The position numbers and the translations under genes are program-made. A stretch of DNA of 64,000 bases from Patescibacteria group bacterium (GTDB lineage Bacteria; Patescibacteriota; Minisyncoccia; JAHIHE01; JAGLIN01), in contig JBAXYM010000003.1 of assembly GCA_041670805.1 (NCBI GenBank), positions 16,406 to 80,405 on the forward strand, written 5' to 3'. The notes under the pieces were generated by a model. The model did no database searches, was not told the origin of the DNA, and saw only the letters and a program-made list of their open reading frames with translations. Below, in pieces: positions 6,951 through 47,996 of the stretch; within the stretch, counting starts at the first letter, position 1, and every line of letters begins with the position of its first letter.

Positions 6951-7074
6951 ATTGAAGGTTAGGAACAGGGAAGATGGTCCCGAAAGACCGGTTTTGGTAG
7001 AAAATTTTTGCCCATCGAACGCTTGCGGAAGAGGAGGAGACTCACCTAGCTATTCGGCAATATATGATTTTCCA

Positions 7075-7380
7075 AATCACACAAACAGTGCTGCCTCGCT
7101 CTGACGTAGTTCGTTGTATTTTGAATTATGGATTTTGAATTTATGGACCACATCAGAAATGATGTGAACCAAGCAAGGCAAAACGTTCTTGCGTAACATT
7201 CCACACCATCTCTGGTGTGGTCCGGATGCAAGAATGCATTTCTGGATTTCGAATTGTGAATTTCCGTATTTCGGATCACATCAGAAATGATGTGAACCAC
7301 GCGGGAGAGAACGTTCTTGCGTAACACTTCACACCATTTCTGGTGTGATCCGAATGCAAAGATGGCGTCTATTGTAAACA
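7075..7380. repeat. Two tandem IRE units (~100-nt inverted-repeat element family) plus flanking att-remnant region
   Basis: Units at ~7146-7233 and ~7272-7360: ggaYcacatcagaaatgatgtgaacc-(loop with AGAACGTTCT palindrome)-cacaccatYtctggtgtgRtcc; ORF 7046..7384 is a translation of this repeat. Confidence 0.7.
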
Positions 7381-7496
7381 CCACATTTTGCGTATGAGCG
7401 ATTTACCCTGCCAAGCATAAACTTCTCATCCCTCCTAAATGCGGAAGAGGAGGGATTTACCCGGCAGCGGGCATAAACTTCTCATCCCTCCTAAAT

Positions 7497-7622
7497 GCGG
7501 TGTAATCGGGTTAAGTACCCGTAACTTACAGTCAGTATAAGGCTTTTTAGGCGGTTTGGCTAGAAGGGGTTTTGAGGTACTCGGGTCGGGGTCTGAAATG
7601 GCAAAATGAGACAAATGAGACA
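7497..7622. repeat. ~126-bp direct repeat X (copy 1), left end of island A; second copy at 27593-27718 (~88% identity)
   Basis: gcggtgtaatcgggttaagtacccgtaacttacagtcagtataaggc...ggtcggggtctgaaatggcaaaatgagacaaatgagaca; a tRNA-Ser 3' fragment gcggaagaggagggatt sits at 7441-7457 just outside it. Confidence 0.7.
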
Positions 7623-7974
7623 CTTTTAGTAGTTTTCAAATGTGTCCGATTAACCTATTTTTCCTCTATGATTAGCCGAAAAATTAGCGAGACACGATAA
7701 AAAACTGTGTCTCAATCATTATTGAATTTGCGTCTCCGAACAGAATCTGATAGTTAACTAAAAGTCCTAGCTTTAGTAAAAATTTCCGTTTCTTGACTAT
7801 TTTGCATTCTTGTTCTAAATTATAAGGATTATCTAATATTTAAAGTCTAGACTCATAGTTTTCGTATAACTAAGCCTATAGCCTGGACTTTATCCCCCAT
7901 GTTATTAAGATAAAGTCTAGGTATAAACAAAAAGGAGCTAGATAACCACGATACCCCCGAAAAATGTACTCGTA

Positions 7975-8667
7975 TTGTTTTCTGGAGGAAAAGATTCTTT
8001 TCTTGCAACATGCAACCTGGCAGAAAGAGGCTTTAAAGTATATATGGTTACATTTGAAAACGGAGCTGGGCTAGGATCAAACAATGTCGAACACGGTGCC
8101 AAAAGGATTATTGCGCATTATGGAAAAGATAAGGCTGAATTCCTCGGCGTACAATGTACCGCGGGAATATGGCGAGAGTTTTTCCTGCCATATCTAAATA
8201 TGAAGCCAAGCGAAGTAATCAAGGAATATGGCGAATTGACCGTCTCGCAATTTAACTGCCTAACATGCAGATCAGCAATGTATATCTGGTCTATTATTAA
8301 GGCAAAAGAAAAAGGAATAAATTACATTGCAGACGGGGCTCGAAAAGATCAGGGATTTGTGATAGAATTACCCTGTATGATAGAGAAATTCAAAGAACTC
8401 ATGTCCGAATTCTCTATTGAACTTTTACTGCCCGTATGGGATTTAAATTCCGGCTGGGAACAAAAAAATCTTTTATTGAGAAGAGGATTCATCCCAAAAA
8501 CGCTGGAATCACAGTGCTTGCTTGGAGCTCCGCTACCAGAGGACAAACAACCGGAAGAGGAAATACAACAAGCGGTAGCAAGATATTTTGAAAAAGTTAT
8601 CTTACCAAGAGCGAGGAATTTAATCTCTTCTGAGTTAGAAATCAGACTAGGAGGAAAAAATGAGTAA
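7975..8667 (+). CDS. PP-loop ATP pyrophosphatase family protein (TtcA/TtuA/Dph6/DndC/QueC-like N-type ATPase)
   Basis: 230 aa; N-terminal PP-loop VLFSGGKDSFLA (SGGKDS), downstream Cys pairs (NCLTCRS); first gene after the island-A boundary. Confidence 0.6.
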   Translation: MFSGGKDSFLATCNLAERGFKVYMVTFENGAGLGSNNVEHGAKRIIAHYGKDKAEFLGVQCTAGIWREFFLPYLNMKPSEVIKEYGELTVSQFNCLTCRSAMYIWSIIKAKEKGINYIADGARKDQGFVIELPCMIEKFKELMSEFSIELLLPVWDLNSGWEQKNLLLRRGFIPKTLESQCLLGAPLPEDKQPEEEIQQAVARYFEKVILPRARNLISSELEIRLGGKNE

Positions 8668-9244
8668 AACAAAAACACAGACACAGGACAAAAGGAGCAG
8701 GAAATTTATTTTTATTCCTTTCTGTGTACTTTGCCAAGCCTTTCAGGCTCAAGGTATTGTCAGATATGATTTTTCTTCCGTAATGACTGACATTATAGAA
8801 GAAATAATGAAGCACGATCTGAATATAATTCAAATGCCTTGCCCCGAAAGCAAGCTGGGGGGATATAAAAACGGGTTGCAAAGACTTCCGCAAAGCATTA
8901 AAAAATATGATACTCCTGAATTCAGAGAAATTTGTATGAACTGCGCATCGGAGGTTATGGAGCAGATTAAAGCAATCCTAGAAAATGGATATGAAATAGC
9001 AGGTATTTTGGGAATAGAAAACTCTCCTTCATGTTCAATAAAATTGCAATATTCTAACAATGGTGCGTATCGTCAGCCGGGTATTTTTATTGAGGAATTA
9101 AAGAAACAACTTGAGCGAGATGGCATAGAGATTCCCTTACTAGGCATAAACCGAAGAGGAGTAGAAATAACATTAGTCAGGCTGAAACAGATGCTCGATA
9201 CAGATCAGGTATCTGTACAGCAAAAGAATTTGAATGAATTTTAA
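8660..9244 (+). CDS. DUF523/TudS-like [4Fe-4S] protein (divergent paralogue)
   Basis: 194 aa; FCVLCQAF and IQMPCPESKLGG motifs paralogous to the CPE motif of the next gene; start overlaps the PP-loop gene stop. Confidence 0.4.
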   Translation: MSKTKTQTQDKRSRKFIFIPFCVLCQAFQAQGIVRYDFSSVMTDIIEEIMKHDLNIIQMPCPESKLGGYKNGLQRLPQSIKKYDTPEFREICMNCASEVMEQIKAILENGYEIAGILGIENSPSCSIKLQYSNNGAYRQPGIFIEELKKQLERDGIEIPLLGINRRGVEITLVRLKQMLDTDQVSVQQKNLNEF

Positions 9245-9295
9245 TTGCTAACATTATTTTTTGTTAGCTTTTTTATTTTATAATTTCCAACCAAT

Positions 9296-9745
9296 ATGAA
9301 ACTTATCAGCGCCTGCCTGTGCGGAATAAACTGCGCATGGAATGGAAAATCAAAAATTTCCCCAAAGATACTTGAACTTGTAAAATCCGGAGAATTTATT
9401 CCTGTATGTCCGGAACAGCTTGGCGGGCTAAGCACTCCCAGAATTCCGCAAGAAATACAAGGCGGATCGGGGGAAGATGTTTTGGCGGGGAAGTGCAAAG
9501 TTATAAACAAAGAAGGAAAAGACGTAACCGCCCAATTCGTGAGAGGGGCGGAGGAAACATTGAAAATCGCAAAGCTCACGGGAGCGAAAAAATTTATTGC
9601 CAAATCAAAAAGCCCTTCCTGCGGCTGCGGCTTCACTTATGACGGAACTTTTTCCGGCACGCTGATTGAAGGTGACGGCGTTACCACGGCGCTCTTGAAG
9701 CGGAATGGAATAAAGGTGATAAGCAGCGAAAATATCGAGGGATAA
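9296..9745 (+). CDS. DUF523 family protein (2-thiouracil desulfidase TudS-like, Cys-ligated Fe-S cluster)
   Basis: 149 aa; LISACLCGINCAWNG ... FIPVCPEQLGGLSTPRIP ... KSPSCGCG conserved Cys pattern typical of DUF523. Confidence 0.55.
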   Translation: MKLISACLCGINCAWNGKSKISPKILELVKSGEFIPVCPEQLGGLSTPRIPQEIQGGSGEDVLAGKCKVINKEGKDVTAQFVRGAEETLKIAKLTGAKKFIAKSKSPSCGCGFTYDGTFSGTLIEGDGVTTALLKRNGIKVISSENIEG

Positions 9746-10086
9746 TCTTATCATAAAAATTAGATCCCATACGATAAAATTTTTATATATTTATTTCTGA
9801 TACTTATAAAGCAATGAATATCTAAATCTGAATTGTTTTTTCTTAACACAGTTTTTTTACATTGTGAATTACCCTGTGTGTCCTATGGACAACACAGGGA
9901 GTTCTTACTTCTTAAAAACAAATCATAAGACTCGCGGATGCAGTTTCTTAGCTAAGCAGGATAAAATGTTGAGGGCTGTCTTTTGGATATGGATATGTTA
10001 ACATTTTTATAATCTGTTTATAATTTATACAAAGAGTTTATTTGGTAATCATAGTAAAATATTCGCAAATATGCTAAATTAATGGC

Positions 10087-10722
10087 ATGGAACAACAAAT
10101 ATCTAGACGAACAGTCAAACAATGCTTGCCAGTTATTAATGCAGTGTATGCCTTTTTCGAAGTGCAAATAGTGGCATATGAGAACTTGGAAAAGAAAGAT
10201 GAGCTGTGCTTTTTTCATTTGGAAAAAGATTTCGGCATTCCCAAGCTATTAAGCGTAGGATATATCTTCGGCGAATGGCTAGAAGGATCAGATTTTATCT
10301 GCAATAAACTCTGCATCGTTAAAACAAATAAAAAGGCTAAGTGGCTTGATTTTATCAGATTGCTTGATAAAAAGATTAATGGGTACAAAGTTGATACTAA
10401 CATTATAGAAATATCTCTTGCATCGAATGGGATGATTTTCAGAAATATCAATGGAATGCGATATAGTTACGATTTTAAAAACGACGGCTTGAAGAAAAGA
10501 ATAATTGCTTTCCTCGCCGAGCAGAATGATTTCGTGCAAACAGCAGCTATCCAAAAATATGTTAAATCTACAAATGTAAAATCTTTTTCAGATGCTGTCG
10601 GGCAGATTAATTCCATTATGGAACAGAAATTGAAGCTACCTAAGGCGCAGAATTTAATCAAAAGCAAACGTGGCTCTGGTTATAGAATTAACCCGCTATA
10701 CAATATCATTTTGACCGATTAA
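10087..10722 (+). CDS. Hypothetical protein with a C-terminal OmpR/PhoB-type winged-helix-like motif
   Basis: 211 aa; C-terminal KSKRGSGYRINPLY resembles the wing of Trans_reg_C domains; no receiver domain. Confidence 0.3.
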   Translation: MEQQISRRTVKQCLPVINAVYAFFEVQIVAYENLEKKDELCFFHLEKDFGIPKLLSVGYIFGEWLEGSDFICNKLCIVKTNKKAKWLDFIRLLDKKINGYKVDTNIIEISLASNGMIFRNINGMRYSYDFKNDGLKKRIIAFLAEQNDFVQTAAIQKYVKSTNVKSFSDAVGQINSIMEQKLKLPKAQNLIKSKRGSGYRINPLYNIILTD

Positions 10723-10865: not shown

Positions 10866-12146
10866 ATGTCTACAAAACAAAGGTTAGAATGGCACACTGA
10901 AAAATGTTCGGTGGCAGAACTTATCCCCAATGACGAAAATCCCCGTGTAATGAGCCAGAAACAAATCGAGGATTTGAAAAGGAGTCTGCAAAAATTTAAT
11001 TTGGTTGAGATTCCTGTTATAGATACCGACAAAAAGGTGCTGGCAGGCCATCAAAGATTGATGGTGCTCAAATTGTTAGGACGAGAAAACGAGGTCATTG
11101 AAGTTAGAGTGCCGAATCGTAAATTGAGCCAGAGAGAATACGACCAATATTTACTTACGAGCAATCGTGTCCACGGTGATTGGGATTGGGAGAAGTTGGT
11201 ACAAAACTTCGATCTTGACCTCTTGGCTATTAGCGGGTTCGATGAAAATGATTTATCGCATCTCTTTGAAGACTTAACAGTAGAAGATGATGAATTTGAT
11301 GTTGAAGTGGAACTGGAAAAGATTAAAAAACCGAAGGCCAGGCTAGGAGATATTTATTTGCTTGGCAATCATAAATTAATTTGCGCAGATAGCACCGATC
11401 CTGAAACAGTCAAAAAACTATTTGGCAAAAACAAAGCGGATATGATTTACCAGGATCCGCCATACAACATCGGCCTGAATTACAACAAAGGGATTGGCGG
11501 CAAACAGCATTACGGCGGCACGGTTAATGATTCTAAAAGTGAGACCGAGTATAAAGAGTTTCTTGGAAAATCTTTGCAAAACGGACTTTTAGTCTGCAAG
11601 CCCGATGTCCATATCTTTACTTATTGCGACCAATCATATATATGGCTGTTTCAAATTCTTTATCAAGAATTGGGTATTCAAAATAGAAGAGTCTGCTTGT
11701 GGGTAAAGAATAGTTCCACGCCTACACCGCAAATAGCCTTTAATAAGCAATACGAACCTTGTGTTTACGGCACAATCGGCAGTCCTTTTCTTGCCGATAA
11801 AGTACTCAACTTATCAGAGATTATGAATAAAGAAATTGGCACAGGCAATCGCACACTGGAGGACATATATGATATGATCGATATTTGGCTTGTCAGAAAA
11901 CTGAGTGGCTCTGACTATCAACACCCAACCGAGAAGCCACCTATGCTTCATGAAAAAGCTTTGCGAAGGTGTTCCAAACCGGGCGATATTATCCTTGATT
12001 TATTTGCTGGTTCTGGGAGCCTGTTGATAGCTTGCGAACAATTAAAACGGTCTGCGTACTTGGTCGAACGCGAACCAGTATTTGTTGATTTAATAATTCA
12101 AAGATATGAGAAACTCACAGGAAACAAATCCAGAAAAATCTCTTAA
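10866..12146 (+). CDS. ParB-like nuclease domain fused to a beta-class N6/N4 DNA methyltransferase (phage/ICE-type orphan MTase)
   Basis: 426 aa; N-terminal ParB-N fold (ELIPNDENPRV...LAGHQRL); MTase motif IV IYQDPPYNIG precedes motif I DLFAGSGSLLIA; ~50% identical paralogue at 29378-30646. Confidence 0.75.
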   Translation: MSTKQRLEWHTEKCSVAELIPNDENPRVMSQKQIEDLKRSLQKFNLVEIPVIDTDKKVLAGHQRLMVLKLLGRENEVIEVRVPNRKLSQREYDQYLLTSNRVHGDWDWEKLVQNFDLDLLAISGFDENDLSHLFEDLTVEDDEFDVEVELEKIKKPKARLGDIYLLGNHKLICADSTDPETVKKLFGKNKADMIYQDPPYNIGLNYNKGIGGKQHYGGTVNDSKSETEYKEFLGKSLQNGLLVCKPDVHIFTYCDQSYIWLFQILYQELGIQNRRVCLWVKNSSTPTPQIAFNKQYEPCVYGTIGSPFLADKVLNLSEIMNKEIGTGNRTLEDIYDMIDIWLVRKLSGSDYQHPTEKPPMLHEKALRRCSKPGDIILDLFAGSGSLLIACEQLKRSAYLVEREPVFVDLIIQRYEKLTGNKSRKIS

Positions 12147-12891
12147 ACACGGCCAGATTTGGCAACTAGGCGATCATAAGTTGCTCTGCGGCAGTTCGTT
12201 GGATTCCGAGCTGGTGCAAAAGCTCCTTGCGGGTTCAAAAATAAATTCCATTATCACTGATCCGCCTTATGGCATTAGCTTTGTCGAGAGCAAAAAAAAT
12301 TTTTCTAAGGTAAAAGTGAACAAGAGAATTCTCAACGATAATATTTCCTCAGAGAAAGAATACTGCGAATTTACAAAGCAGTGGCTAAAAATTCCCTTGC
12401 TTTACCTAGCCAAGAAAAATAGCATTTATATCTTCAACTGTGATAAAATGCTCTTTGCCTTAAAAAAGGCGCTTGACGAACTTGATGTTTATTTCTCGCA
12501 ATTAATTATTTGGGTAAAGAATCATGCCGTAATCGGGCGTAAAGACTATCTGCCTCAGCATGAATTGATTTTATTCGGTTGGTTTGGCGCTCATGCTTTT
12601 AAGCGAAGTAAGGACAAATCTGTTTTGTTTTATCCAAAACCGAATAAGAGCAGTTTGCATCCTACCACCAAACCCATGGAATTAATCAGTCATTTAATAT
12701 TAAATTCTACCGATATCGGCGATACTATCTATGATTGCTTTGGTGGTTCGGGCACTTGCCTAATATCAGCCGAACTAACTAAAAGGCGCTGTCTAATGGT
12801 CGAGTATGACTTAGAATATTGTGCAATTATTATGAAGCGCTGGGCACATATAACTAAACAAGAAATTAAATTAATTTATGAAGAAGAATGA
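12106..12891 (+). CDS. DNA methyltransferase (beta-class N6A/N4C), second MTase of the module
   Basis: 261 aa; ITDPPYGISF then DCFGGSGTCLISAE; start overlaps the upstream gene (translational coupling). Confidence 0.7.
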   Translation: MRNSQETNPEKSLKHGQIWQLGDHKLLCGSSLDSELVQKLLAGSKINSIITDPPYGISFVESKKNFSKVKVNKRILNDNISSEKEYCEFTKQWLKIPLLYLAKKNSIYIFNCDKMLFALKKALDELDVYFSQLIIWVKNHAVIGRKDYLPQHELILFGWFGAHAFKRSKDKSVLFYPKPNKSSLHPTTKPMELISHLILNSTDIGDTIYDCFGGSGTCLISAELTKRRCLMVEYDLEYCAIIMKRWAHITKQEIKLIYEEE

Positions 12892-13297
12892 TCAAAACAA
12901 AAAATTATTGCTTGAACAGCTGAGCAAAACACCAATTATTCAAATTGCTTGCGAAAAACTGGGGATTGCCCGTCCGACTTTTTATCGCTGGAAAGCGCAG
13001 GATAAGGAATTCGGTAGGCAGGTCGATGAAGCAATCAGAGGCGGTAGATTGCTGGTTAACGACTTAGCTGAAAGCCAATTAATTAGTGCCGTCAAAGACA
13101 GAAATATCCAGGCCGTTATGTACTGGCTTAAACATCATCACGTGGATTATAGGAATCGTCTGGAAATTGACGGAAACATAAATACCAGCCAAGAATTATC
13201 ACTTGAACAACAAACATTAATTAAGAAAGCCCTTGAGTTTGCTTCCTTTGACCTAGAGCAGAAACAAGATATTAAAACCAATGAAAACGATAGCTGA
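12878..13297 (+). CDS. HTH protein, terminase small subunit-like
   Basis: 139 aa; IACEKLGIARPTFYRWKAQDKEF HTH; directly upstream of and overlapping the TerL-like gene; paralogue at 31389-31898. Confidence 0.4.
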   Translation: MKKNDQNKKLLLEQLSKTPIIQIACEKLGIARPTFYRWKAQDKEFGRQVDEAIRGGRLLVNDLAESQLISAVKDRNIQAVMYWLKHHHVDYRNRLEIDGNINTSQELSLEQQTLIKKALEFASFDLEQKQDIKTNENDS

Positions 13298-14714
13298 ACA
13301 AACCTACGAGTTGATGTCCGATATTATTAGGGATAAAGATATTCGTACCAAAGTAGCCACCGAAAGCCACTATTGGTTTTTTCATATTTATTTTCATCAT
13401 TATGTTAAATATCCAACCGCTGATTTTCAGAGAGAACTATTTGCTATTACCCAAAGCGATAATATCAGCACGGCTGTCATTGTAAGTTTTCGCGGTTCGG
13501 CCAAATCAACTATCATGACTATGTCATATCCAATCTGGTCAATTCTAGGCAAACAACAGAAGAAGTTTGTTATAATTATCAGCCAAACCCAGTATCAGGC
13601 CAGGATGCATTTAAGCAATTTGAAGCGGGAGCTGGAAAGTAATCGACTATTGCGCTCCGAACTGGGGCCATTCGAAGAAAAGAATGAAGAATGGGGTTCT
13701 ACTTCGTTGGTAATTCCTAAATTCAATGCCCGTATTACCGCCGCTTCTTGTGAACAAAGTGTGAGAGGCCTGCGGCATGGAGCCAACCGTCCCGACCTTA
13801 TAGTCTGCGATGATGTCGAAGATTTAAATTCAGTTAAAACGCGGGAAGGGCGTGATAAAACTTATAATTGGCTGACGGGAGAAGTAATTCCTTCCGGTGA
13901 TCGGAGCACTAAAGTGGTTGTTGTCGGCAATTTATTACATGAAGACAGTTTGCTGATGCGGCTTAAGGCCAATATTGAAGAGAATAAATTAAATGGTATT
14001 TTTAGAGCTTATCCTCTGACTGATCATCGAGACCAAACAAATTGGCCTGGCAAATTTCCTACCAAGGAATTGATTGATTTGGAGAAAATGAAAGTAGGCA
14101 ATGAAATTTCTTGGCAAAGAGAATATTTATTGAGAATTGTACCTAATATCGGACAGGTCGTGCACAGGGAATGGATTCATTATTATGATGTGCTTCCACA
14201 ATCTTCTGAACATTATACATCCACGGTTAGTGGTGTTGATCTGGCTATCTCCAAAAAAGATACCGCGGATTGTACAGCCATTGTGTCAGCCAAAGTTTAT
14301 TCCATTGACGATAGTTTTAAACTTTATATCTTGCCTAATCCGATCAATGAAAAAATGGAATTTCCAGATATGATTAGAAAAATAAAGGCATTAGAAACTG
14401 TTCTTGGCTACAGTATGATATATGTTGAAGATGTCGCTTTTCAAGCTTCTTTGTATCAGCAATTAATTGAAAAAGGAATTCCTGCTGAAGGGGTAAAAAT
14501 ACATGGTCAGGATAAATTATCTCGATTGACGCTAACCACTGCTCTAATCCAATCCGGAAAAATTATTTTCCCTCGAAAGGGCACTGAAAGGCTAATTGAA
14601 CAAATGCTTAACTTTGGAATCGATAAGCACGATGATTTAGTCGATGCTTTCACTTTATTAGTACTAAAGGTTGCAAATAACAATTACAGTATGCCAAGAG
14701 TCGTTTTGCTTTAA
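13281..14714 (+). CDS. Phage terminase large subunit-like ATPase/nuclease
   Basis: 477 aa; Walker A SFRGSAKSTIM, Walker B LIVCDDVEDL, C-terminal RNaseH-like nuclease signature GVDLAISKKDTADCTAIV ... IDKHDDLVDAF. Confidence 0.55.
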   Translation: MKTIAEQTYELMSDIIRDKDIRTKVATESHYWFFHIYFHHYVKYPTADFQRELFAITQSDNISTAVIVSFRGSAKSTIMTMSYPIWSILGKQQKKFVIIISQTQYQARMHLSNLKRELESNRLLRSELGPFEEKNEEWGSTSLVIPKFNARITAASCEQSVRGLRHGANRPDLIVCDDVEDLNSVKTREGRDKTYNWLTGEVIPSGDRSTKVVVVGNLLHEDSLLMRLKANIEENKLNGIFRAYPLTDHRDQTNWPGKFPTKELIDLEKMKVGNEISWQREYLLRIVPNIGQVVHREWIHYYDVLPQSSEHYTSTVSGVDLAISKKDTADCTAIVSAKVYSIDDSFKLYILPNPINEKMEFPDMIRKIKALETVLGYSMIYVEDVAFQASLYQQLIEKGIPAEGVKIHGQDKLSRLTLTTALIQSGKIIFPRKGTERLIEQMLNFGIDKHDDLVDAFTLLVLKVANNNYSMPRVVLL

Positions 14715-27718: not shown

Positions 27719-27748
27719 GTATAAAAATAAATATGTTCTTGTCTCATT

Positions 27749-28807: not shown

Positions 28808-29377
28808 ATAAAAATAAGATTATTTTAAATATTTTATCATATAACTGATTATAAAGAAATAATCAGTCGTATAGCTGATTTTAGGTGCTTATATGAGAAG
28901 CAAGACGAGGCAAAGAAGACATAATATATTGTAAGGATTGCAAACATATGTTTCGTCTCATTTGACACAATATTTCCATATGTGATATATTATTAATACA
29001 ATTTAATAAACCTGTATCTCTCTAAGACAAAAGAGGGCGAATAAAATTTATGTTAGAACCTTGTTCAAAAAACTACATAAATAATATTCATTGTTCTATT
29101 TTGTTTGAGATAGAATTTCATTTCAGTTTTGAGGCAGTGCCACAAAAATCAAAACAAGGATGATTATTCGGATGGATTTCTAATGCTCTATATGTTCTTA
29201 TCGGGTCCTTTGACCAAAAAGGATAAGACATATATCAAGGTTATAAATCGAAGGAAATAAACAAGCTTATGCTGTTTGTTGCTTTTGATTCATAACCTTT
29301 TTTGATTAAGCAATACCCAGCTAACTTGCAGCTGGGTATTTTATTGTCCAGCAAAACTAATAAAATAATCAATACTT

Positions 29378-31370: not shown

Positions 31371-31388
31371 CATGTTAACCGAAATTTT

Positions 31389-34171: not shown

Positions 34172-34293
34172 ATAATTATATTATTGTGTTACCTAAACAC
34201 ATTATTTTATCTGATATTGGCTAGGATGGCTAGCCATTTTAACAATAATAACCACTTATAAGTGGTTACTTTAACTGTTTGGAGTATTATAAT

Positions 34294-34722
34294 CTAACGA
34301 TAATATCTCTTTTTGTGATATCGTCGTCCGCTTGGTTCCCAAAGATAAGGCCAGAATCCAGATAGATGTAACAACAATCCCGATGAAATAAATACAACAA
34401 GATGGATTTCGTATGGCCATACCATGCAATATACAGAATCACCAAATAATTTCTCAAAGGATAAAAGTAGTAATGCTTGCAAACCTGTGTAAGTACCACT
34501 GCCAACAAAACGATTGAAGGACGGAGAAAAACCATTTTTAGAATTGTAGTGAAACGTACCATTTCGGGTTAATATTTCCCAAGCGATCCATATAAAGAGA
34601 AATATAAGTATAACAAGCCAATACCATGGCCATAGTGTATAGATTATCTGCCATAAAAATGAAGATGCGGATGAAGCAAATGGAATAGAAACTATGGAAC
34701 AAATATCACCTACTGAAAACAT
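34294..34722 (-). CDS. Small multi-pass membrane protein
   Basis: 142 aa; W/L/I-rich hydrophobic helices; upstream of and co-oriented with the ABC-ATPase gene. Confidence 0.3.
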   Translation of the reverse strand: MFSVGDICSIVSIPFASSASSFLWQIIYTLWPWYWLVILIFLFIWIAWEILTRNGTFHYNSKNGFSPSFNRFVGSGTYTGLQALLLLSFEKLFGDSVYCMVWPYEIHLVVFISSGLLLHLSGFWPYLWEPSGRRYHKKRYYR

Positions 34723-40300: not shown

Positions 40301-41566
40301 CTTTTTCTCACAAACGATTAAGCATGTAGCATTATTTGCCAAAGCATTAGAAACAATTGCGGTAATGCTTTGACTTTTGCCAGTACCAGGAGGACCTTGA
40401 ATCAGTTTAATTTCATCTTTTGTTAAAGTGTTCACGATCTCTTCCTTGCTTGGATCAGTCTCAACTGCAGAAATAGTAGATGTCTGAAATTTTTCTAAGA
40501 CTAATTTTTCACTTTCGAATTCTTCAAATCTCTCAAGTAGCTCTTCCGTGGAATGAATAATAGTTTCGTTCTGTGATCTATAAAGGCCAAAGACCCCACT
40601 CCATTGTATCCAAGGTTTAGAATTAGCAATCGCCTCAACCTGTTTTGCATCGGGACATTTCTCAATCTTTATTTCTAAATTGTCTACCTGAGAATTTAAC
40701 TGGGATAAAATATTTTTACTCAATGCTATAAGTTCGTTTTGGTCTAATATTCCATCTTCCAGTATCTTTTCTGATATCTTTTCAATCTGAACAGATTCAT
40801 CTTTCGATAAATGAGAAACCAGTAGTTCGTTTATCTTAATTGGCGAATCCTCCTCTTTTTTGATTGTCCAAGTATTCTTATTCTGATAAGAACGCTGAAT
40901 ATCTAATTGCCAAATAAAAAGAGGAGCTTTTATAATCTTCGTAGGATCATTTCGATCACGCTTTATTAATATAGGATATCCAAAACCAAAATTTTTAAGC
41001 CCAAACTCCAAGAAATTGTCTTCATTCTCTATTACGATAGCATTTAATCTCTTCGATATAAGTGCAAGTCTTTTCTTTTCCTCCTCATCTATTTTTCCTA
41101 AATCAATTTTGTCATAGGAAATTGAAAATGAAAAAGACTCATTGTTAAGAATCGTTTCGATAAAATCAAACGGCATTTTTTGATCCACACTCATTAATTG
41201 GCATAAATCGAGACGGATCGCAGAACGTCCCGGAATTACATTCAGATGAATAGAACGAGCATTCCCAACCTTTAGTTTATCGAGCAATCTCTTTACGAAA
41301 TTTTTATCAAATTTTATTTGCGATATTTTTTGCTGAGCTTCTTGATTGCTTACATTAGAGTGCATTTTAGTTGTTTTGTCAGTGAAAACAGCAGTGGAAT
41401 TATCTTCTGTTTTTGTGGTTGTCGATATTTTTTTGTCCTGCTTCATTACTTCTTGCTTACAATAGGAACAAACTGTTCCACTTTTTACTTTATGATTTTT
41501 GCATACAATGCATAGGGGCTTATTTGCCCAATATGCTTGTGCGTCAAACTTGCGATAAGATTTCAT
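37376..41566 (-). CDS. Giant Upf1/DNA2-like SF1 helicase with an N-terminal zinc ribbon and a C-terminal Vsr/DUF559-type PD-(D/E)xK endonuclease domain
   Basis: 1396 aa; N-terminal CIVCKNHKVKSGTVCSYCKQ; Walker A LIQGPPGTGKSQSITAIV; motif II IFDEASQ; C-terminal GFRLDFVIKTGSKDVVLECDGKAYHSSEEAYAYDMYRQKELENMGFIVYRIW. Confidence 0.65.
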   Translation of the reverse strand: MKSYRKFDAQAYWANKPLCIVCKNHKVKSGTVCSYCKQEVMKQDKKISTTTKTEDNSTAVFTDKTTKMHSNVSNQEAQQKISQIKFDKNFVKRLLDKLKVGNARSIHLNVIPGRSAIRLDLCQLMSVDQKMPFDFIETILNNESFSFSISYDKIDLGKIDEEEKKRLALISKRLNAIVIENEDNFLEFGLKNFGFGYPILIKRDRNDPTKIIKAPLFIWQLDIQRSYQNKNTWTIKKEEDSPIKINELLVSHLSKDESVQIEKISEKILEDGILDQNELIALSKNILSQLNSQVDNLEIKIEKCPDAKQVEAIANSKPWIQWSGVFGLYRSQNETIIHSTEELLERFEEFESEKLVLEKFQTSTISAVETDPSKEEIVNTLTKDEIKLIQGPPGTGKSQSITAIVSNALANNATCLIVCEKKTALDVIHANLEKIGLEDFSMVIDDVNKDRKKTIERARNIKECSHNTLFSESEFNDKYNKFCQLKGEINSKHAESLKKVFGDFSWKQLIGLYLRFSKSGDIDQINSILDYRKLEFSHKEYSTYLSLVEEGSFLFGDLENNAEGIFQMLDHRLFSIGYKWATQEKIKDETSKFLEIIENIYLFLSNKEQNDCEEKNVSLFVPKTVEESGAVVLNAIENLEEIINLYEQGIALNRSSFNSKGYWQDLLLSLSSIANAENRKIFTIRKKISVLYDSVSKSILEMEKFNFEIRKMPDFKEYNSYEQLKSNVSEVLSKVRSAESKIKMIQAIEIKLKQAETNLAKIKKDEIFDFELINYGDLGSHESVCKYYLELKNKIEKIKSYLDSYESFHNWKYFCSNKNEFELQILSAFKRFPVENWKNIFNAWYYRGALLNYESNTGIGFHKSDSKLQQLTVLYKELEKQQIKQIKSVWNDNRNHKLSEITFNFNTLYNLRRNNAGPKNSLRNIIEKDFDLFTTLFPVILTNPAAANAILPLKQGLFNIVIFDEASQLRIPDTFTSLIRGQYKIIAGDEHQMPPSNYFQSTIEALDLEEKEDNDDVFNEEDEQNVLAESESLLQYATDLQNINKSYLDFHYRSNHPALIEFSNSAFYGGNLISFPAQEVYKPIEFRAVNGRYETRTNPAEIAEILKIIRDEIHPDQKGKYPSVGIATFNINQRNLITEALNEVAENDSEFAIKLQELRERGLFVKNLENIQGDEKDIIIISTTYGIKPDGTFSQNFARLNRIEGYKLLNVLITRAKHKLYVCTSIPKDKYLAYSEIIKNEGNNKKGILYAYLAYAEAISNHDNECADNILKLLKTQSFEKPRIISSTDGLSESPFEEEVYELLLDHFEKDNIIQQYKVGGFRLDFVIKTGSKDVVLECDGKAYHSSEEAYAYDMYRQKELENMGFIVYRIWSTNWFQDKEGEIKKLLRFVESLEK

Positions 41567-41576: not shown

Positions 41577-42122
41577 TTATTTATACCAAATCATATAATC
41601 TACCCTTTTTCCTATTATATGTACGAGTACTTGAACGTCACCATCAGGATTTAGTATCTGAATAGTACTTTCTTTTTTTCTAGAGTCGATATATTTCGTA
41701 ATCGCCGGTGATAAAATATCATTATATGATTTTTTAGAAGGATACGAATATAAAGACCAATCTATGCCATTGCCGCTACCATCAGAATACTCTTCTCTTC
41801 CGACTTCTATCCTTGCATCATCATACCAATATTCATAATATTGATTATGCTCATCATTTCGAATATTATTAGGATTTCCGTACAAACCCTTTGCATTTTC
41901 AAAATTTAAACCCGGCAAAAAGGTGTGAAAAAGTGTAGTGTCTACTAGATCTGATAATTTAGCTCCTTCAACTGGTTTTATGGTAAGCCAGTGCTGATAA
42001 AACTCAATACTTTTCACTGGCGGTTCTCCAGCAATTTCATTTCGGCTTGACTGAACATAAAAAATTCTACCCAAAAGTAATAAAGATATTATAGCGACCG
42101 CTATTAGTACGTTTTTATTCAT
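41577..42122 (-). CDS. Secreted hypothetical protein
   Basis: 181 aa; signal peptide MNKNVLIAVAIISLLLLG. Confidence 0.35.
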   Translation of the reverse strand: MNKNVLIAVAIISLLLLGRIFYVQSSRNEIAGEPPVKSIEFYQHWLTIKPVEGAKLSDLVDTTLFHTFLPGLNFENAKGLYGNPNNIRNDEHNQYYEYWYDDARIEVGREEYSDGSGNGIDWSLYSYPSKKSYNDILSPAITKYIDSRKKESTIQILNPDGDVQVLVHIIGKRVDYMIWYK

Positions 42123-42331: not shown

Positions 42332-43651
42332 ATGGAAATAAACGGACTTCAGACCGCAAACCAGACAATCATAGCGAAGGAAGAAATAAAGTATTGCCTC
42401 TATGCCCGCAAATCAACCGAATCAGAGGAACGGCAAATCCTCTCAATTGATAGCCAAGTCAAAGAGATGCTGGATCTGGCAAACCGGGAAGATCTGAATG
42501 TTATAGAAATAAGGCGAGAATCACATAGCGCTAAAGAAACCGGACAGCGCAAGGTGTTTAATGAGCTTGTAACAGATATTAGGGCAGGTAAATTCAATGC
42601 CCTCCTCACTTGGGCCCCGGACAGAATATCACGAAATGCTGGAGATTTAGGAGCGATCGTAGATCTGATGGATCAAGGAATATTAAAAGAGATCAGAACT
42701 TACGGTCAGAAATTTAGCAATAACCCAAATGAAAAATTTTTGCTTATGATTCTAGGATCGCAGGCGAAACTGGAAAATGACAACCGAGGAGTCAATGTCC
42801 GGCGAGGATTAAGGACAAGAGCAGAGATGGGATTATGGGTAGGATTGGCACCTCTCGGATATTTGAATCAAAAACGAATGGATAAGAAATGTCAGGTTAT
42901 TCCAGACCCATTAAGATCTCCAGCTATTAAACAGATATTTGAAAAAGTGGCGTATGAGAAATATAGCGGACGACAAATACATAACTGGCTCAAGCATGAT
43001 CTTAACTTTTATACCAGAGGAAACAAGCCGCTAACTTTAAGTGGAGTTTATAGAGTCTTAGACAATCACTTTTACTATGGCATGTTTGAAAGGCCAGTTG
43101 GAAGCGGAAATTGGTATCATGGAAAACATAAAACACTTATTACCCAAGAACTTTTTGAGAAAGCGCAAGCACAACTTAAAAGAGATAAGATTGTCAGAGA
43201 AAATAAGGAATTTGCATTCACCAAACTAATTACCTGCGGGCTATGTGGTTCAGGAATATCAGCCGAAGAAAAATATAAAGAATTGAAGGATGGAACCACA
43301 GCTCATTATATTTATTATGGATGTAGTCGAGCAAGAGACAGATTTTGTAAGAACAAATATATTAGAGAAGAAGAACTCGTTGTTGAACTTCTTAAGATAA
43401 TTGATAAGGTAGATATAAACGAACTTGGAATGCTGACAAGACTTGAGATGGAAGTTGATAGATTCAATAAATTCCAAAACATGGTCTTTGGAGAAAAACT
43501 TAATAATAAAAAACAAAAGCCCGCAGTTGATATGCGGGTTTATGCAAAATATGTGCTTAAAGAAGGAAGTGTGACAGAGAAGCGAGAGTTATTAGCTAAT
43601 CTGAGGAGTAGAATAATATTGAGAAATAAAAAGCTAATATTAAATGATTGA
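42332..43651 (+). CDS. Large serine recombinase (paralogue of 21692-23014)
   Basis: 439 aa; same catalytic and zinc-ribbon motifs; near-identical over most of its length; preceded by a ~120-bp leader conserved with 21560-21690. Confidence 0.8.
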   Translation: MEINGLQTANQTIIAKEEIKYCLYARKSTESEERQILSIDSQVKEMLDLANREDLNVIEIRRESHSAKETGQRKVFNELVTDIRAGKFNALLTWAPDRISRNAGDLGAIVDLMDQGILKEIRTYGQKFSNNPNEKFLLMILGSQAKLENDNRGVNVRRGLRTRAEMGLWVGLAPLGYLNQKRMDKKCQVIPDPLRSPAIKQIFEKVAYEKYSGRQIHNWLKHDLNFYTRGNKPLTLSGVYRVLDNHFYYGMFERPVGSGNWYHGKHKTLITQELFEKAQAQLKRDKIVRENKEFAFTKLITCGLCGSGISAEEKYKELKDGTTAHYIYYGCSRARDRFCKNKYIREEELVVELLKIIDKVDINELGMLTRLEMEVDRFNKFQNMVFGEKLNNKKQKPAVDMRVYAKYVLKEGSVTEKRELLANLRSRIILRNKKLILND

Positions 43652-43661: not shown

Positions 43662-45152
43662 TTATTTATCTTGCTTCTCGTGTTTAATGATATCCCAATA
43701 TGGTTTTGCATAATCTTCTCCCTCTATGTCTTTAAGGAGCTTAATTTGCTTTTCTGGAATTTCAGCTATTAAGTGATCAAGATAATCTAAAAATTCATTT
43801 TTATTGTTAAGTGAAAAAACTTGTGATTTAAATTCTTTTAGCCTGAGATACCCCGGAGTGCCTTTGGGGAATTCTTTTAAAAGCAAAGCCGATTCCTTAT
43901 CTACAAAAAGAGCATCACAATAAGGTAAATAGCTTGAGATAAATTGAACATCTACTGTTGATTTCGGAGCATCTTTTTTCCCATTAGCAGCTCTATAAGC
44001 TAGCCCTGCAAACATAACAGAATTGATTTTAATAGCTGGGATTTCAAGTAATGAATCAATATCGCAAAGATATTTGGCAATTGTTGGTAGTATCTGAGTA
44101 TCTGGTAAATTGTTTACTTTTGTATATTCCCTGGTAATTTTAAATAATGTTTCCCATATATCACATGAAAGTGGTGGTAGTATATCATCCATTTCAAAGT
44201 TATAAAATTCTCCTGCTGCAATTTTTTTAGCAGCTATCTCCCTTCTTTTAGCAAATTGCTGTACGGCACCGCATATACCTTTTCCAAAACCTAAAGTTTC
44301 TTCCTTTACTCTATCAATAAAATTTGCTCCTTCGTCTTGCCATCTAGTCCATATTTCCTGAAGCTGTTCCTTAGTTAAAGCATTAATTTTATTAAGACCT
44401 TCAATTTCTCCAGGATAAGGATTAGCATTGACAGACACTCTTAGCCCTAATGACCAAGTATGTAAATTCTTAAAAGATATACCCTCTGGAAAATAATCAA
44501 ATTTAACTTTCTCATTATTCAGCCATCCCTTAAAATGAGTTTCAACTTGCATCCTTTCAATAATAGCACTTGGATATAGTGTTTTACCACATGAAAAATG
44601 CTCATATAATCTTCTCATTAATTTGAAATCTATTTTTCCGGTTAGCGATTCATTCAAATGATAAAAACTATCCGGACAGACGATTGCCTGAGATTTAGAG
44701 GCAGCTTCAAGTTTTGTAAATAGAGATTCCCAAAAGGGATCTGACATTATTTTTTGATGGCTTGGGTGCGTATTATCTAGTAGTTTGATTAAATTACTAA
44801 TGACAAACTGATCCAAATAGATAACTTTCTTATTGATTGGCGGCAAATCGTACACTTCTTGATAGCCGCATTCGGTACATTCTCTCGTGTAGGAAGACAT
44901 GCCTTCTATGCATGTTAGCACCCCAAAAGAATCCTGGACTTGACATTCTGGGTTGGGGCATTGTTTATATGGACCAGAAATAAAATCACGGCGCGTTATC
45001 CTCATACTTTTTTTCTCATTTACAACAGTTTCTTGATTTATTCTGTCCATACAGCACTTTTTATATTTTTTACCACTTCCGCAAGGACATGGATCATTTC
45101 TTCCAACTTTATCCATTTTGGTTAGGCTAAGGAAATTAATAAATTCCGACAC
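43662..45152 (-). CDS. SEC-C motif (SecA C-terminal-type metal-binding) protein with an additional zinc ribbon
   Basis: 496 aa; N-terminal [18 protein letters not shown]; later CPNPECQ...CTECG. Confidence 0.4.
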
Positions 45153-45228: not shown

Positions 45229-45834
45229 TTACTTGGTGTAAGAGATAATGCCCTTTACAATTCCTTCGATTCTAAAATTGTTTTTATTGGCCAAAAAAGG
45301 CTCGAAGGATGGGTTTAAAGAAACAAGGATAATATCGTTTCCAGTTTTTTGAATTTTCTTAATCAACGCTTCGTCATTATTCACGCATACTACCATATCT
45401 CCATTATCTGCTTTATTATTTTTTTGGACGATTACCAAATCGCCACTTTTTATTTTAGGTTCCATAGAGTTGCCTTTAGCTCTAACCAAAAAAGCATCCG
45501 AAGAAGAAAATCCCAGTATCTTTGTTGATATAGGTACCCTTTCTATTGGATTACCATCCAAAATTGATCCATTTGGGCCGCATTGCGCCATTCCGTATAA
45601 GTTTAAAAATGCAATTCTCTTATCCGGAGAATCAATCAAGATTTGATAATCCTGTGGATTCCTGGGATTTCTCCTTAGATATCCTTTTATTTCAAGTTGT
45701 CGGACATGATGATGAATTATGCTTGTCGATGATATATCTAATTCATCTTTTAGCTCTCTAACGGTCAAAGGATCTTCGATATTATCCTTTAGTAAAGCAA
45801 GTAATTTTTGCTGTGTAGGATGCAGTTTCTTCAT
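45229..45834 (-). CDS. LexA-like repressor (N-terminal wHTH plus C-terminal S24 peptidase, Ser/Lys dyad)
   Basis: 201 aa; AKGNSMEPKIKSGDLVIV (Ser nucleophile) ... MVVCVNNDEALIKKI (Lys); divergent from the Ubl/E2-E1 operon. Confidence 0.6.
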   Translation of the reverse strand: MKKLHPTQQKLLALLKDNIEDPLTVRELKDELDISSTSIIHHHVRQLEIKGYLRRNPRNPQDYQILIDSPDKRIAFLNLYGMAQCGPNGSILDGNPIERVPISTKILGFSSSDAFLVRAKGNSMEPKIKSGDLVIVQKNNKADNGDMVVCVNNDEALIKKIQKTGNDIILVSLNPSFEPFLANKNNFRIEGIVKGIISYTK

Positions 45835-45956
45835 AAAATTACTTATATTTATTATTTATTATACCATGTGGATAATATGTGTGCAAGAACTTATTGACCT
45901 GTTCTAGTATTTGTTCTATACTGAATTTAAATTAAATAATCATAAGTAACAAAACT

Positions 45957-46235
45957 ATGAGCAACTCAGAAGAACACAAGGGCGAAGCGCCTGGTCAGAA
46001 CAAAGAATCTACGATAATTGTAAATGGCAGGGAAAAAATTGTAACTGGAAAAGAGTTAACCTTTACTCAAATTGTCGAATTAGCTTTTGGTCCTTCAACA
46101 AATCCAAACACTATTTATACGGTAATCTATAAGAAAGGTGATAATGACAAGCCTGAAGGTACTATGGTAAATGGTGATAAGGTTAAAATTAAGAATAAGA
46201 TGATATTCAATGTCACAGCAACTGATAAATCATAG
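45957..46235 (+). CDS. Small beta-grasp ubiquitin-like candidate protein
   Basis: 92 aa; first gene of a three-gene overlapping operon with the E2::E1 fusion; mixed K/G beta-strand pattern (GDKVKIKNKMIF); C-terminus is not Gly-Gly. Confidence 0.35.
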   Translation: MSNSEEHKGEAPGQNKESTIIVNGREKIVTGKELTFTQIVELAFGPSTNPNTIYTVIYKKGDNDKPEGTMVNGDKVKIKNKMIFNVTATDKS

Positions 46236-47385
46236 CCCTGATCTAAAAAGATTAAGGGATGACGGTTTTGAAATAGAAATTGTATCAGGTTACCTTTTGA
46301 TTAACAATGTGCCCTATTTTGATTCAGATAAAAAGCCTGTATACGGTACTCTTATTTCAGAGCTTACTTTGGCTGGAAATAGAACGACAAAACCCAATAC
46401 TCATGTTGTTCATTTTAAAGGTGTGTATCCTTGCAATAAGGATGGATCGGAGATAGAACAAATCAGGCATAATAGCAACTTGCAAACGCTTGCCGATGGA
46501 TTAGTGGTCGACCATTCATTTTCCAATAAACCGCCCGAAGGATACAATGACTATCATGAGAAGATGACAAGATATATAGATATTATTTCTGCCCCGATCC
46601 AATCAATGGATGGTTCTATTACAGCAAAGACATTTAAGCCTGTCGAATCTGAGGATGAGGATTCCGTATTCCATTATATTGATACAAATTCTAGCAGAGC
46701 AGAAATCAACCTAATTTCCGACAAATTAAAATATCATAAAATAGGAATCATCGGATTAGGAGGTACTGGTTCTTATATTTTAGATCTTATCTCTAAAACG
46801 CCGGTAAAAGAAATTCATCTTTTCGATGGAGATAAATTTTTGCAACACAATGCGTTCAGAACGCCAGGAGCAGCATCAATTGAAAAACTGAAAAAATGCC
46901 CGACCAAAATCGAATATCTTAAAGAGATATATTCGAACATGCATAAGAATATTTGCCTGCATCCCGGCTTTCTTGATTCCTCAAACATTGAACAATTGTT
47001 TGGCATGGATTTTATCTTTATTTGCATAGATAAAGGCGAAGTAAAAAAACTAATATTTAAATATCTTGAGGAGAAAAATATTCCCTTTATTGATGTAGGT
47101 ATGGGAGTATCTATCGTAGATAATAAATTATTTGGAAATATCAGGACTACTTCCAGCAAGGAAAACAAACGAGATCATATAAAAACGAGGGTCCCTCTTG
47201 TAAGCTTGGAAGATGATGAATATTCAACTAATATTCAAATTGCCGAACTTAATGCACTCAATGCGGCATTTGCTGTAATAAAGTGGAAAAAAATATGCGG
47301 ATTTTACCTCGATCAAGAAAATGAGAATAATAGCACATTCGCAATCAATTTAAATACATTAATAAGCGATGATCATGATTCATAA
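46210..47385 (+). CDS. E2-like domain fused to an E1-like (ThiF/MoeB-family) adenylation domain
   Basis: 391 aa; C-terminal Rossmann [17 protein letters not shown] plus downstream Asp (LFDGD); N-terminal ~150 aa with an [15 protein letters not shown] Cys-containing motif; overlaps both neighbouring genes. Confidence 0.55.
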
Positions 47386-47791
47386 ATTTGTCGAAAATAT
47401 TCCAGACAATCTAGAAGAAGGAACTATCTATATTTCTATTGAATATGGAACTGTTGTGCATAAATGCTGTTGCGGATGTGGAAACGAAGTGGTTACACCG
47501 CTTTCACCAACAGATTGGCAATTGATATTTGATGGTGAAACTATTTCACTTTACCCTTCAATCGGAAATTGGAATTTTGATTGCAAATCACACTATTGGA
47601 TAATTAATGATAGGATTAAGTGGGCAAGAAAATGGTCTAAGCAGGAAATTGATGGTAATAGGCAAAAAGATAGTTTAGATAAAAAGAAATATTATAGTCC
47701 TAAAGATTCGTTTTATAACAAAGAAATACACAGTGAAAATAATAAAGGATTAAAAAACCTATTGAATATGATTTCTCGTTTCTACAGGTAG
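47369..47791 (+). CDS. Small protein with a Cys-cluster (zinc-binding) motif, third gene of the Ubl/E2-E1 operon
   Basis: 140 aa; [11 protein letters not shown] ... FDCKSH. Confidence 0.3.
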
Positions 47792-47857
47792 TATGAAATT
47801 AGTCTTTAGTCATAAAGGTCGAAAAATAATACAACTTCAAATTTTATTAGCATGAAA

Positions 47858-47912
47858 ATACCCAGCAAAAGCTGGGTATTCGGGTCTATCCGATACTTTG
47901 TTGTCTTGGCGG
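47858..47912. repeat. ~54-bp repeat Y copy 2 (dyad hairpin, tRNA downstream flank and last 6 nt of tRNA-Ser); right end of island B
   Basis: atacccagcaaaagctgggtattcgggtctatccgatactttgttgtcttggcgg; duplicated at 27544-27596. Confidence 0.7.
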
Positions 47913-47996
47913 AAGAGGAGGGATTCGAACCCTCGAGACCCGTTAAGGTCTACTGCTTTTCGAGAGCAGCGCTTTCAACCACTCAGCCACCCTTCC
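47907..47996 (-). tRNA. tRNA-Ser (anticodon CGA), type II with long variable arm, CCA encoded
   Basis: rc reads GGAAGGGTGGCTGAGTGGTTGAAAGCGCTGCTCTCGAAAAGCAGTAGACCTTAACGGGTCTCGAGGGTTCGAATCCCTCCTCTTCCGCCA; anticodon loop CUCGAAA with U33 and A37; T-arm GGTTCGAATCC. Confidence 0.85.

Follow-up and report, generated by a model that had tools for sequence, protein, structure and literature searches.

A Patescibacteria contig (JBAXYM010000003.1) carries, within the 64-kb stretch that was analyzed as a whole and is called the window here, two related elements of about 20 kb, A and B, lying head to tail at the 3′ end of a tRNA-Ser(CGA) gene. Each is bounded by a left arm, X, and a right arm, Y, and each encodes a large serine recombinase (LSR), a ParB domain fused to a DNA methyltransferase (ParB::MTase), a second DNA methyltransferase (MTase) and the terminase protein TerS, together with defense genes; element A also encodes TerL. 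An earlier note, made from the letters of the window alone, had described two such elements stacked at the tRNA and bounded by X and Y, and this description stands: dozens of unrelated Patescibacteria contigs have, at their tRNA-Ser genes, LSR elements with X-like and Y-like arms on either side. We consider it likely that A and B are two distinct members of one integrative-element family, inserted head to tail at the tRNA-Ser(CGA) 3′ end by their own LSRs. The features that define the ends are as follows (a slash marks the junction).

7415 to 7457: attB-like relic, a 26-nt flank arm, GCGG and 14 nt matching the tRNA-Ser 3′ end (cctaaatGCGG/aagaggagggattt)
7471 to 7500: chromosomal (left) arm of attL, the second copy of a 30-nt repeat, ending in the core GCGG at 7497 to 7500 (attL junction cctaaatGCGG/tgtaatcggg)
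7497 to 7622, plus strand: X1, left end of element A and P′ arm of attP, carrying GGGTTAAGTACCC, GAGGTACTCGGGTCGGGG and two copies of AAATGAGACA
27539 to 27597, plus strand: Y1, right end of element A and P arm, ending in TGGCGG, with the core GCGG at 27594 to 27597 and a degenerate hairpin
27594 to 27718, plus strand: X2, left end of element B, forming with Y1 an attP-like Y–X junction (internal junction ttgtcttgGCGG/tgtaagtggg)
47854 to 47912, plus strand: Y2, right end of element B (attR), with a perfect 9-bp hairpin at 47858 to 47879 (attR junction ttgtcttgGCGG/aagaggaggg, the latter in the tRNA)
47907 to 47996, minus strand: tRNA-Ser(CGA), the integration target, its 3′ end toward the elements

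The tRNA gene was found intact by ARAGORN and scores 59 bits against the Rfam tRNA model. X1 and X2 are 88.9% identical over 126 nt (BLAST E 2e-33), close to the ∼88% first estimated, and Y1 and Y2 are about 89–90% identical over 58–59 nt (BLAST E 1e-14). Measured core to core, element A spans 20,097 nt and element B 20,315 nt, in agreement with the spacings of ∼20.1–20.3 kb given before, and the G+C content of 34% in both elements vs. 44% and 46% in the flanks bears out their greater A+T richness. The direct repeat at the two ends of an element is 4–6 nt long, and GCGG is the sole sequence common to attL, the internal Y–X junction, attR, and the attB-like relic. No further copy of X or Y was detected in the window by a repeat finder and BLAST. 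We rejected the possibility that X and Y are generic dispersed repeats, as their copies in the window lie at element boundaries only.

The arms have internal structure of their own. Y had been described as containing a perfect dyad; Y2 does contain one (ATACCCAGC-aaaa-GCTGGGTAT at 47858 to 47879), and the Y1 copy is degenerate. The same stem, ATACCCAGC/GCTGGGTAT, recurs in a terminator-like hairpin at 29312 to 29340, 5′ of the ParB::MTase gene of element B. The relic at 7415 to 7457 forms the dyad ATCCCTCCT-N11-AGGAGGGAT and contains the first exact copy of the 30-nt repeat. X terminates in two direct 9-mers, AAATGAGACA (7604 to 7622 and 27700 to 27718), with an inverted third copy at X2 (27740 to 27749). 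In the X alignment, the variable bases of these paired 9-mers (AAATGnnACA) covary across elements (GGCACA with GGCACA, GTTACA with GTGACA), which suggests a co-evolving DNA-binding protein. An RNA function of X was also considered and rejected, since X matched no Rfam family and had no consensus fold. By-eye inspection for inverted-repeat symmetry of the attP half-sites was unconvincing.

We assembled 144 loci around LSR homologues from metagenomes and IMG/VR, comprising 140 distinct LSR copies (loci and contigs are cited below by L numbers). A downstream tRNA gene accompanies 62 of the 140, always on the opposite strand (62/62) and with its 3′ end toward the LSR. In 49 of these 62 loci it is a tRNA-Ser with the anticodon gct, cga, gga, tga, or “act”, and the median distance is 1.8 kb; the remaining 13 are tRNAs for Asp, Gln, Glu, Asn, or Trp, about half of them beside more distant LSRs. 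The tRNA-proximal arm has the consensus ..CGGGTC-N-CCGATACTAAATTGTCT/TGGCGG and, whatever the anticodon, adjoins the 3′ end of the tRNA-Ser gene; it is missing from unoccupied tRNA-Ser genes of these loci. Y1 and the arm beside tRNA-Ser(gct) in L089 share 93% identity, and the VirB4 DNA of these two genomes is only 66% identical. Y2 provides the bases after ..CCGC of the tRNA, and its junction occurs also in L244. On the opposite side, an X profile (X1 match E 6e-33) identified about a dozen distinct contigs with homologous arms, located upstream and on the same strand. Such arms occur in 14 contexts besides X1, where X starts immediately after GCGG and has either unrelated DNA (attL) or a Y arm (attP-like) as its left neighbor.

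Complete X-to-Y elements measure 3.9 kb (L115, L156), 6.3 kb (L098), 12–14 kb (L095, L128, L162), and 20 kb (the window). In the shortest, L115 and L156, X lies directly 5′ of the LSR gene and Y adjoins the tRNA, and this position of X is our main reason for assigning integration to the LSR. Because Y arms abut the tRNA 3′ end and X arms begin right after GCGG, the joined Y–X sequence would be attP, with the crossover inside GCGG. An LSR as integrase accounts for a common core of GCGG only, in place of a long tRNA duplication. On the tRNA strand, the core reads CCGC and takes in the final two bases of the acceptor stem, the discriminator, and the opening C of CCA, so that an element would replace nothing beyond the trailing bases and the 3′ trailer. 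To judge from the attB-like relic, the ancestral tRNA gene may have lacked a fully encoded CCA.

The catalytic domain of LSR-A and LSR-B matches PF00239 (E 1e-18 and 3e-18), and both proteins carry PF07508 and PF13408 in their C-terminal part. Among solved LSR structures, the best match has an E value of about 1e-10; the match to the structure of the SPbeta integrase YokA is weak. When 8000 homologues of LSR-B were scored, the best 120 were 72–92% identical and were labeled with many Patescibacteria groups. In an alignment of 30 homologues, mean column identity was 78% and the catalytic serine S28 was invariant. These homologues mark the LSRs as a highly conserved family that is abundant among Patescibacteria.

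Element A contains the following genes (lengths in amino acids, aa).

7975 to 10722, plus strand: left-end cargo, encoding a 230-aa protein (weakly QueC-like/DUF7411), 194-aa and 149-aa DUF523/2-thiouracil-desulfurase-like proteins, and an unassigned 211-aa protein (Pfam, PHROGs)
10866 to 12146, plus strand: ParB-domain::N6/N4 DNA methyltransferase, backbone (PF01555 E 1e-29, phrog_498 E 1e-93, ParB phrogs)
12106 to 12891, plus strand: second DNA methyltransferase, backbone (PF01555 E 2e-29)
12878 to 13297, plus strand: TerS (phrog_309 E 1e-9, other TerS phrogs)
13281 to 14714, plus strand: TerL (phrog_38 E 8e-76), with Walker A/B and nuclease acidic residues intact
14803 to 17430, minus strand: KAP-family NTPase, PifA-like, cargo (PF07693 E 1e-40; PADLOC PifA E 5e-59)
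17435 to 21470, minus strand: type III restriction-modification in the slot between TerL and LSR, res at 17435 to 19840 and mod at 19746 to 21470 (PF04851 and PF01555)
21692 to 23014, plus strand: LSR-A, 440 aa (Resolvase, Recombinase, and Zn_ribbon_recom)
23004 to 24551, minus strand: 515-aa protein without a family match, cargo
24622 to 27330, minus strand: superfamily 1 (SF1) helicase, candidate single-gene defense system PDC-S53, in the slot between LSR and Y (PADLOC 1356 bits)

Element B contains the following.

27749 to 28807, minus strand: 352-aa protein without a family match
29378 to 31898, plus strand: backbone, with ParB::MTase at 29378 to 30646, MTase at 30606 to 31370, and TerS at 31389 to 31898 (Pfam, PHROGs)
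31907 to 32806, minus strand: unassigned 299-aa protein, cargo, with a LOOT RNA upstream; a homologue lies downstream of a LOOT RNA in L164
32875 to 33005, minus strand: LOOT RNA (Rfam RF03000, 63.7 bits vs. a gathering score of 46.4)
33068 to 34722, minus strand: two-gene module without an assigned function, a 142-aa protein (34294 to 34722) and a 367-aa multi-CxxC protein (33068 to 34171)
34766 to 37174, minus strand: AAA_13 ABC-type ATPase, candidate defense system PDC-S06, cargo
37376 to 41566, minus strand: 1396-aa SF1 helicase fused to an MTES_1575/DUF559 nuclease (PDC-S37/Hhe-like), cargo
41577 to 42122, minus strand: unassigned 181-aa protein
42332 to 43651, plus strand: LSR-B, 439 aa, with the catalytic-serine motif YARKSTESEERQ
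43662 to 45152, minus strand: 496-aa protein with an N-terminal SEC-C motif, cargo
45229 to 45834, minus strand: LexA-like S24 repressor, divergent from the ubiquitin-like operon (PF00717 and PF01726)
45957 to 47791, plus strand: ubiquitin-like (Bub-type) operon, cargo, with Multi_ubiq, DUF6791-ThiF E1, and DUF6527/BubE (Pfam)

Between A and B, amino acid identity is 53% for ParB::MTase, 55% for MTase, 39% for TerS, and 91.5% for the LSR, and there is no other gene in common; a shared module with paralogous recombinases and different defense cargo had been predicted, and the cargo does score as defense. Several defense systems cluster across the two islands: the PifA-like KAP NTPase, type III restriction-modification, PDC-S53, PDC-S06, PDC-S37/Hhe-like, and the Bub-type operon. 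No tyrosine recombinase (Phage_integrase domain) was present among the 30 island proteins, and a XerD-like gene at 55074 to 55979 lies outside both islands. Searches of both islands revealed no primase, replicase, or initiator domain (Pfam, PHROGs, and PADLOC) and no portal, capsid, tail, or lysis gene (Pfam and PHROGs). What the islands do hold are packaging genes without a complete virion module, TerS in both and TerL in A. By gene content, therefore, the islands lack the defining features of tyrosine-integrase islands, of prophages (no virion genes), and of classical satellites (no replication module). The phage-satellite-like character suggested by the earlier note is plausible, given TerS and TerL and the failure to see virion genes, and it stays at the level of inference.

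The backbone recurs across the family. Homologues of ParB::MTase were found in 74 of the 144 LSR loci, of MTase in 72, of TerS in 72, and of TerL in 61, almost always in the order ParB::MTase-(MTase)-TerS-TerL-LSR, with the LSR gene often within about 200 nt after TerL. The TerL of element A is 25% identical to annotated phage terminases and had no match among solved structures in a sequence search. In the family, 58 of 64 distinct TerL open reading frames (ORFs) are complete, and among 59 homologues conservation is at least 90% for the motifs Walker A (RGSAKST) and Walker B (LIVCDDVED) and for the nuclease aspartates, which indicates that the terminase probably still works and is no relic. 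The top families of the 96 and 134 ORFs near the backbone in related loci included none for a portal, capsid, or tail, and no TerL or LSR in deposited phages was more than 28% identical (TerL at most 26%). In some IMG/VR members (L196, L198, L200, L202, L204), two TerL-like genes lie in tandem between TerS and LSR.

Cargo across the family is very diverse by clustering and includes type I, III, and IIG restriction-modification, GmrSD, AbiEii-like ATPases, DruA (Druantia), AbiJ, SAVED/SLATT (CBASS-type), reverse transcriptases, and LexA-like repressors, the last also recurring across elements. A type III res/mod pair occupies the TerL–LSR slot also in L203, L181, and L148, and a 70% homologue of the PDC-S53 helicase lies in the LSR–Y slot of L175. 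The left-end cargo of element A has no homologue in other LSR loci. The KAP/PifA-like gene of element A is broken into ORFs of 566 and 319 aa in L087 (12241 to 14867; sample ERZ27247361), a sign of cargo decay within the population. The 142-aa/367-aa module of element B has 189 homologues with matches in Patescibacteria only, and its 367-aa protein has four conserved Cys pairs; a confident structure model gave no informative fold match. The module lies directly 5′ of the LSR gene in L245 (9447 to 11104) and 5′ of ParB::MTase in several loci. LOOT RNAs, for which we know of no assigned function, occur in other elements of the family (L164 4724 to 4844, L177 11322 to 11451, L168 8688 to 8801), each time 20–70 nt 5′ of an ORF and twice directly after the LSR stop codon. 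The LOOT RNA seems to be a cargo gene’s leader or its RNA partner.

We propose that integration would proceed as follows. In the free circle, Y would be joined to X, giving attP, and the LSR would exchange strands inside the 4-nt core GCGG. Integration would then leave the chromosomal arm, GCGG, and X on the far side (attL) and Y, GCGG, and the tRNA on the near side (attR). Y would supply the remaining CA and the hairpin downstream of the tRNA, and with the CA restored the tRNA would stay intact. A second element would enter at a hybrid site of the first, creating the internal Y1–X2 junction. Three slots (X to ParB::MTase, TerL to LSR, and LSR to Y) contain defense systems, mostly on the opposite strand. 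As far as nucleotide and protein comparisons reach, the boundaries, core, family membership, and cargo are established; from them, we infer that the LSR catalyzes integration and that it accepts hybrid sites. As for transfer, it is quite possible, if tentative, that the element’s own terminase packages its DNA into helper-phage capsids and that the orphan methylases protect this DNA in new hosts.

The array itself is well attested. A 160-kb contig of a Patescibacteria metagenome-assembled genome (MAG; European Nucleotide Archive ERZ27249489) matches the window at 99.995% identity, and the Y1–X2 junction is spanned by contigs of three independent assemblies (L085, L086, L087). It is therefore not an artifact or chimera; single-island strains or circles would give Y–tRNA, Y1–X1, and Y2–X2 junctions instead. 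Tandem Y–X junctions occur also in L103 (several, one of them inverted), L140, L146, and L180, in keeping with the accreting array that the earlier note had envisaged, and five IMG/VR contigs carry two LSR copies. Another contig of the same MAG, k141_2333469 (L245 1 to 21104), holds a full-backbone element at tRNA-Ser(gct) and an oppositely oriented element with its Y arm at tRNA-Ser(tga). Together with the A–B array, these make at least four LSR elements at three tRNA-Ser genes of one genome.

Junction partners may also vary in the populations. L242 (3497 to 3767), a 3.8-kb contig from sample ERZ27247350, matches the left end of element B, X2, and 35 nt of Y at 99.3% identity; beyond these 35 nt follows different DNA with another gene, not the helicase end of element A. 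L243, a Logan contig of 100% identity, ends exactly at the core GCGG. L242 and the ends of L241 and L243 suggest that there are several junction partners in the populations, which is consistent with junction variation and no proof of activity.

Immediately left of X1, the earlier note had seen the footprint of repeated insertions, and this remains unproven. A 17-nt tRNA-Ser fragment at 7441 to 7457 (17/17 nt) is significant (E 3e-4), lies 40 nt outside the X1 boundary, where only GCGG is shared, and is not a product of LSR integration. A second fragment that had been reported, a 13-mer at 7025 to 7037, does not reach significance (E 0.06), and comparable 12-mers are present in other places. 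The supposed 30-nt tandem duplication consists of two copies that are indeed exact (7415 to 7444 and 7471 to 7500) and that are not contiguous, with 26 nt between them. Two tandem copies of a dispersed repeat of ∼128 nt with internal hairpins, resembling a miniature inverted-repeat transposable element, lie just left of the array (7115 to 7236 and 7243 to 7364), and others lie near tRNA-Leu and pilin genes (56107 to 56241 and 62046 to 62328); this repeat is unrelated to X and Y. The pnp/rpsO flank described before is present on the right side; on the left, the flank carries type IV secretion genes similar to VirB4/TraC, with a TraC-like ORF of 226 aa followed by a VirB4-like ORF of 615 aa at 797 to 3718. 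In L089 and L090, from other Patescibacteria genomes, a TraC/VirB4 pair (18.8–21.3 kb) lies ∼7 kb from an LSR-occupied tRNA-Ser(gct), on the opposite side of the tRNA.

Several observations weigh against serial insertion by the LSRs followed by self-packaging. Canonical LSRs recombine attP with attB only, and stacking would thus need an unusual tolerance for hybrid sites or a cointegrate intermediate. X, at about 126 nt, is far longer than an LSR half-site, CTCGGGT-like motifs are directly repeated in both arms, and neither the 17-nt tRNA fragment left of X1 nor the 56-nt spaced duplication there resembles the product of a recombinase with a 2-bp crossover. Clustering of the cargo ORFs yielded no conserved small gene adjacent to the LSR that could be a directionality factor. 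Searches for an empty attB, a single-element variant, or a circular Y1–X1 or Y2–X2 junction found none, and all long contigs of the strain carry the A–B array; a scan of IMG/VR for the attP-type (Y–X) pattern gave 0 matches. Concerning packaging, TerL is present in element A and missing in element B, from which it was lost, and no replication gene or helper phage was identified.

The empty site that the earlier note had advised seeking in related genomes was likewise looked for and not found. Among 185,579 species genomes, the best pnp match reaches 60% identity, in a context without synteny and without a tRNA-Ser nearby, so a related empty site is not findable by this route. Exact look-ups of flank and island proteins returned the same A–B arrangement or nothing.

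The alternative that survives best concerns the route of transfer. Under it, the elements would be cassettes like the staphylococcal cassette chromosome (SCC), in which LSR and att arms serve integration and excision only, transfer occurs by natural transformation or the host’s type IV machinery, and TerS, TerL, and the methylases play another role, such as phage interference. Short X-LSR-Y elements without terminase genes (L103, L115, L156) fit this alternative, as do the lack of TerL in island B, the failure to find a replication module or helper phage, the type IV secretion genes flanking the array, and the resemblance of tandem arrays at a conserved-gene 3′ end to SCC composite islands. 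However, most elements keep TerS and TerL in a fixed order by the LSR and with intact catalytic motifs, which is hard to explain without packaging, and no relaxase or uptake signal was identified. We therefore regard a cassette-only life style as unlikely and favor self-packaging as the transfer route.

Much less probable is that the elements are decayed prophages, remnants of temperate LSR phages whose structural genes were replaced by defense genes and whose terminase was left over. TerS, TerL, and ParB-MTase are typical phage genes, and 68 of the related loci lie on contigs classed as viral by IMG/VR. Nevertheless, the same compact, virion-free backbone recurs in dozens of divergent loci (LSR 45–83% identical to LSR-B), complete X-to-Y elements span 3.9–14 kb, TerL is under clear constraint, and neither the 230 neighboring ORFs, whose top families include no portal, capsid, or tail, nor the deposited phages, with their distant best TerL and LSR matches, point to a phage origin of this kind. 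Least credible of all is that a single island was duplicated in place and in tandem and the copies diverged, or that the assembly merged two strain variants with one island each, as the similar island lengths, same gene order, near-identical LSR regions, and the breaking of other samples’ contigs inside repeated parts might suggest, but the 91.5% identity of the LSRs against 39–55% in the backbone, together with entirely different cargo, argues for two separately acquired family members rather than a duplication, and the three assemblies across Y1–X2 speak against a chimera.

Patescibacteria, with their minimal genomes, are difficult to grow in culture and for the most part have no CRISPR, and little is known of how they gain and rearrange defense genes. 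Judging from the window, much of this exchange of defense genes may be organized by one very conserved integrase family whose address in tRNA-Ser is fixed. Full-text literature searches found no description of such elements in Patescibacteria. To our knowledge, tRNA-targeting serine integrases are unusual, and terminase-bearing elements without capsid or replication genes fit no satellite family familiar to us. Somewhat more tentatively still, we suggest that the elements could form an apparently undescribed hitch-hiking class across Patescibacteria, which would combine a conserved serine integrase, a 4-nt core at every tRNA-Ser end, hybrid-tolerant stacking, and its own TerS/TerL packaging into the capsids of other phages. 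If this is true, the elements would be the main vehicle for the exchange of restriction and defense systems among these tiny genomes. In our assessment, a serine integrase with a near-invariant tRNA-end target could also be a natural DNA-insertion tool for Patescibacteria, for which genetic tools are scarce.

Among known systems, tRNA islands of the Islander type with tyrosine integrases (PMC4383910) share the position at a tRNA 3′ end, the restoration of the tRNA by the element, and a G+C content below that of the flanks; the elements described here differ in having no tyrosine integrase and an end repeat of 4–6 nt, apparently in place of a displaced stretch of tRNA that is tens of nucleotides long. 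The tycheposons of Prochlorococcus use a tyrosine recombinase in 910 of 937 cases, with a minority using LSRs, and often carry replication genes (10.1101/2020.12.28.424599). They resemble the present elements in being tRNA-addressed, variable islands of a streamlined genome with tandem junctions and in having both cargo and satellite-like forms (with terS or a capsid gene) (10.1101/2020.12.28.424599), whereas in the Patescibacteria elements an LSR is the sole type of integrase, replication genes were not seen, both TerS and TerL occur, and the cargo serves defense rather than nutrient uptake.

Phage satellites, such as phage-inducible chromosomal islands (PICI), their capsid-forming relatives (cf-PICI), PICI-like elements (PLE), and P4-like elements, are likewise small and integrated, with packaging genes but without a full virion module, and carry defense cargo. 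PLE also uses an LSR. Unlike them, the elements studied here have no primase or replication module, no recognizable helper-sensing regulator beyond a LexA-like protein in some members, a TerL without portal or capsid genes, and tRNA-Ser as their target.

The SCC elements of staphylococci integrate by Ccr LSRs at the 3′ end of rlmH, which is kept intact, through a short core; they form composite head-to-tail arrays of SCC and the arginine catabolic mobile element (ACME) with site repeats, and they carry adaptive and defense cargo and no replication or virion genes. By description, the two systems share the LSR, a conserved gene whose 3′ end stays intact, the short core, stacked cassettes parted by site repeats, and defense cargo. 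In contrast to SCC, the Patescibacteria elements target a tRNA instead of the protein gene rlmH, encode a single LSR per element that is distantly related to other LSRs, and possess long conserved arms (126 and about 55 nt) and a terminase/methylase module. By analogy, then, the elements would work most like SCC cassettes.

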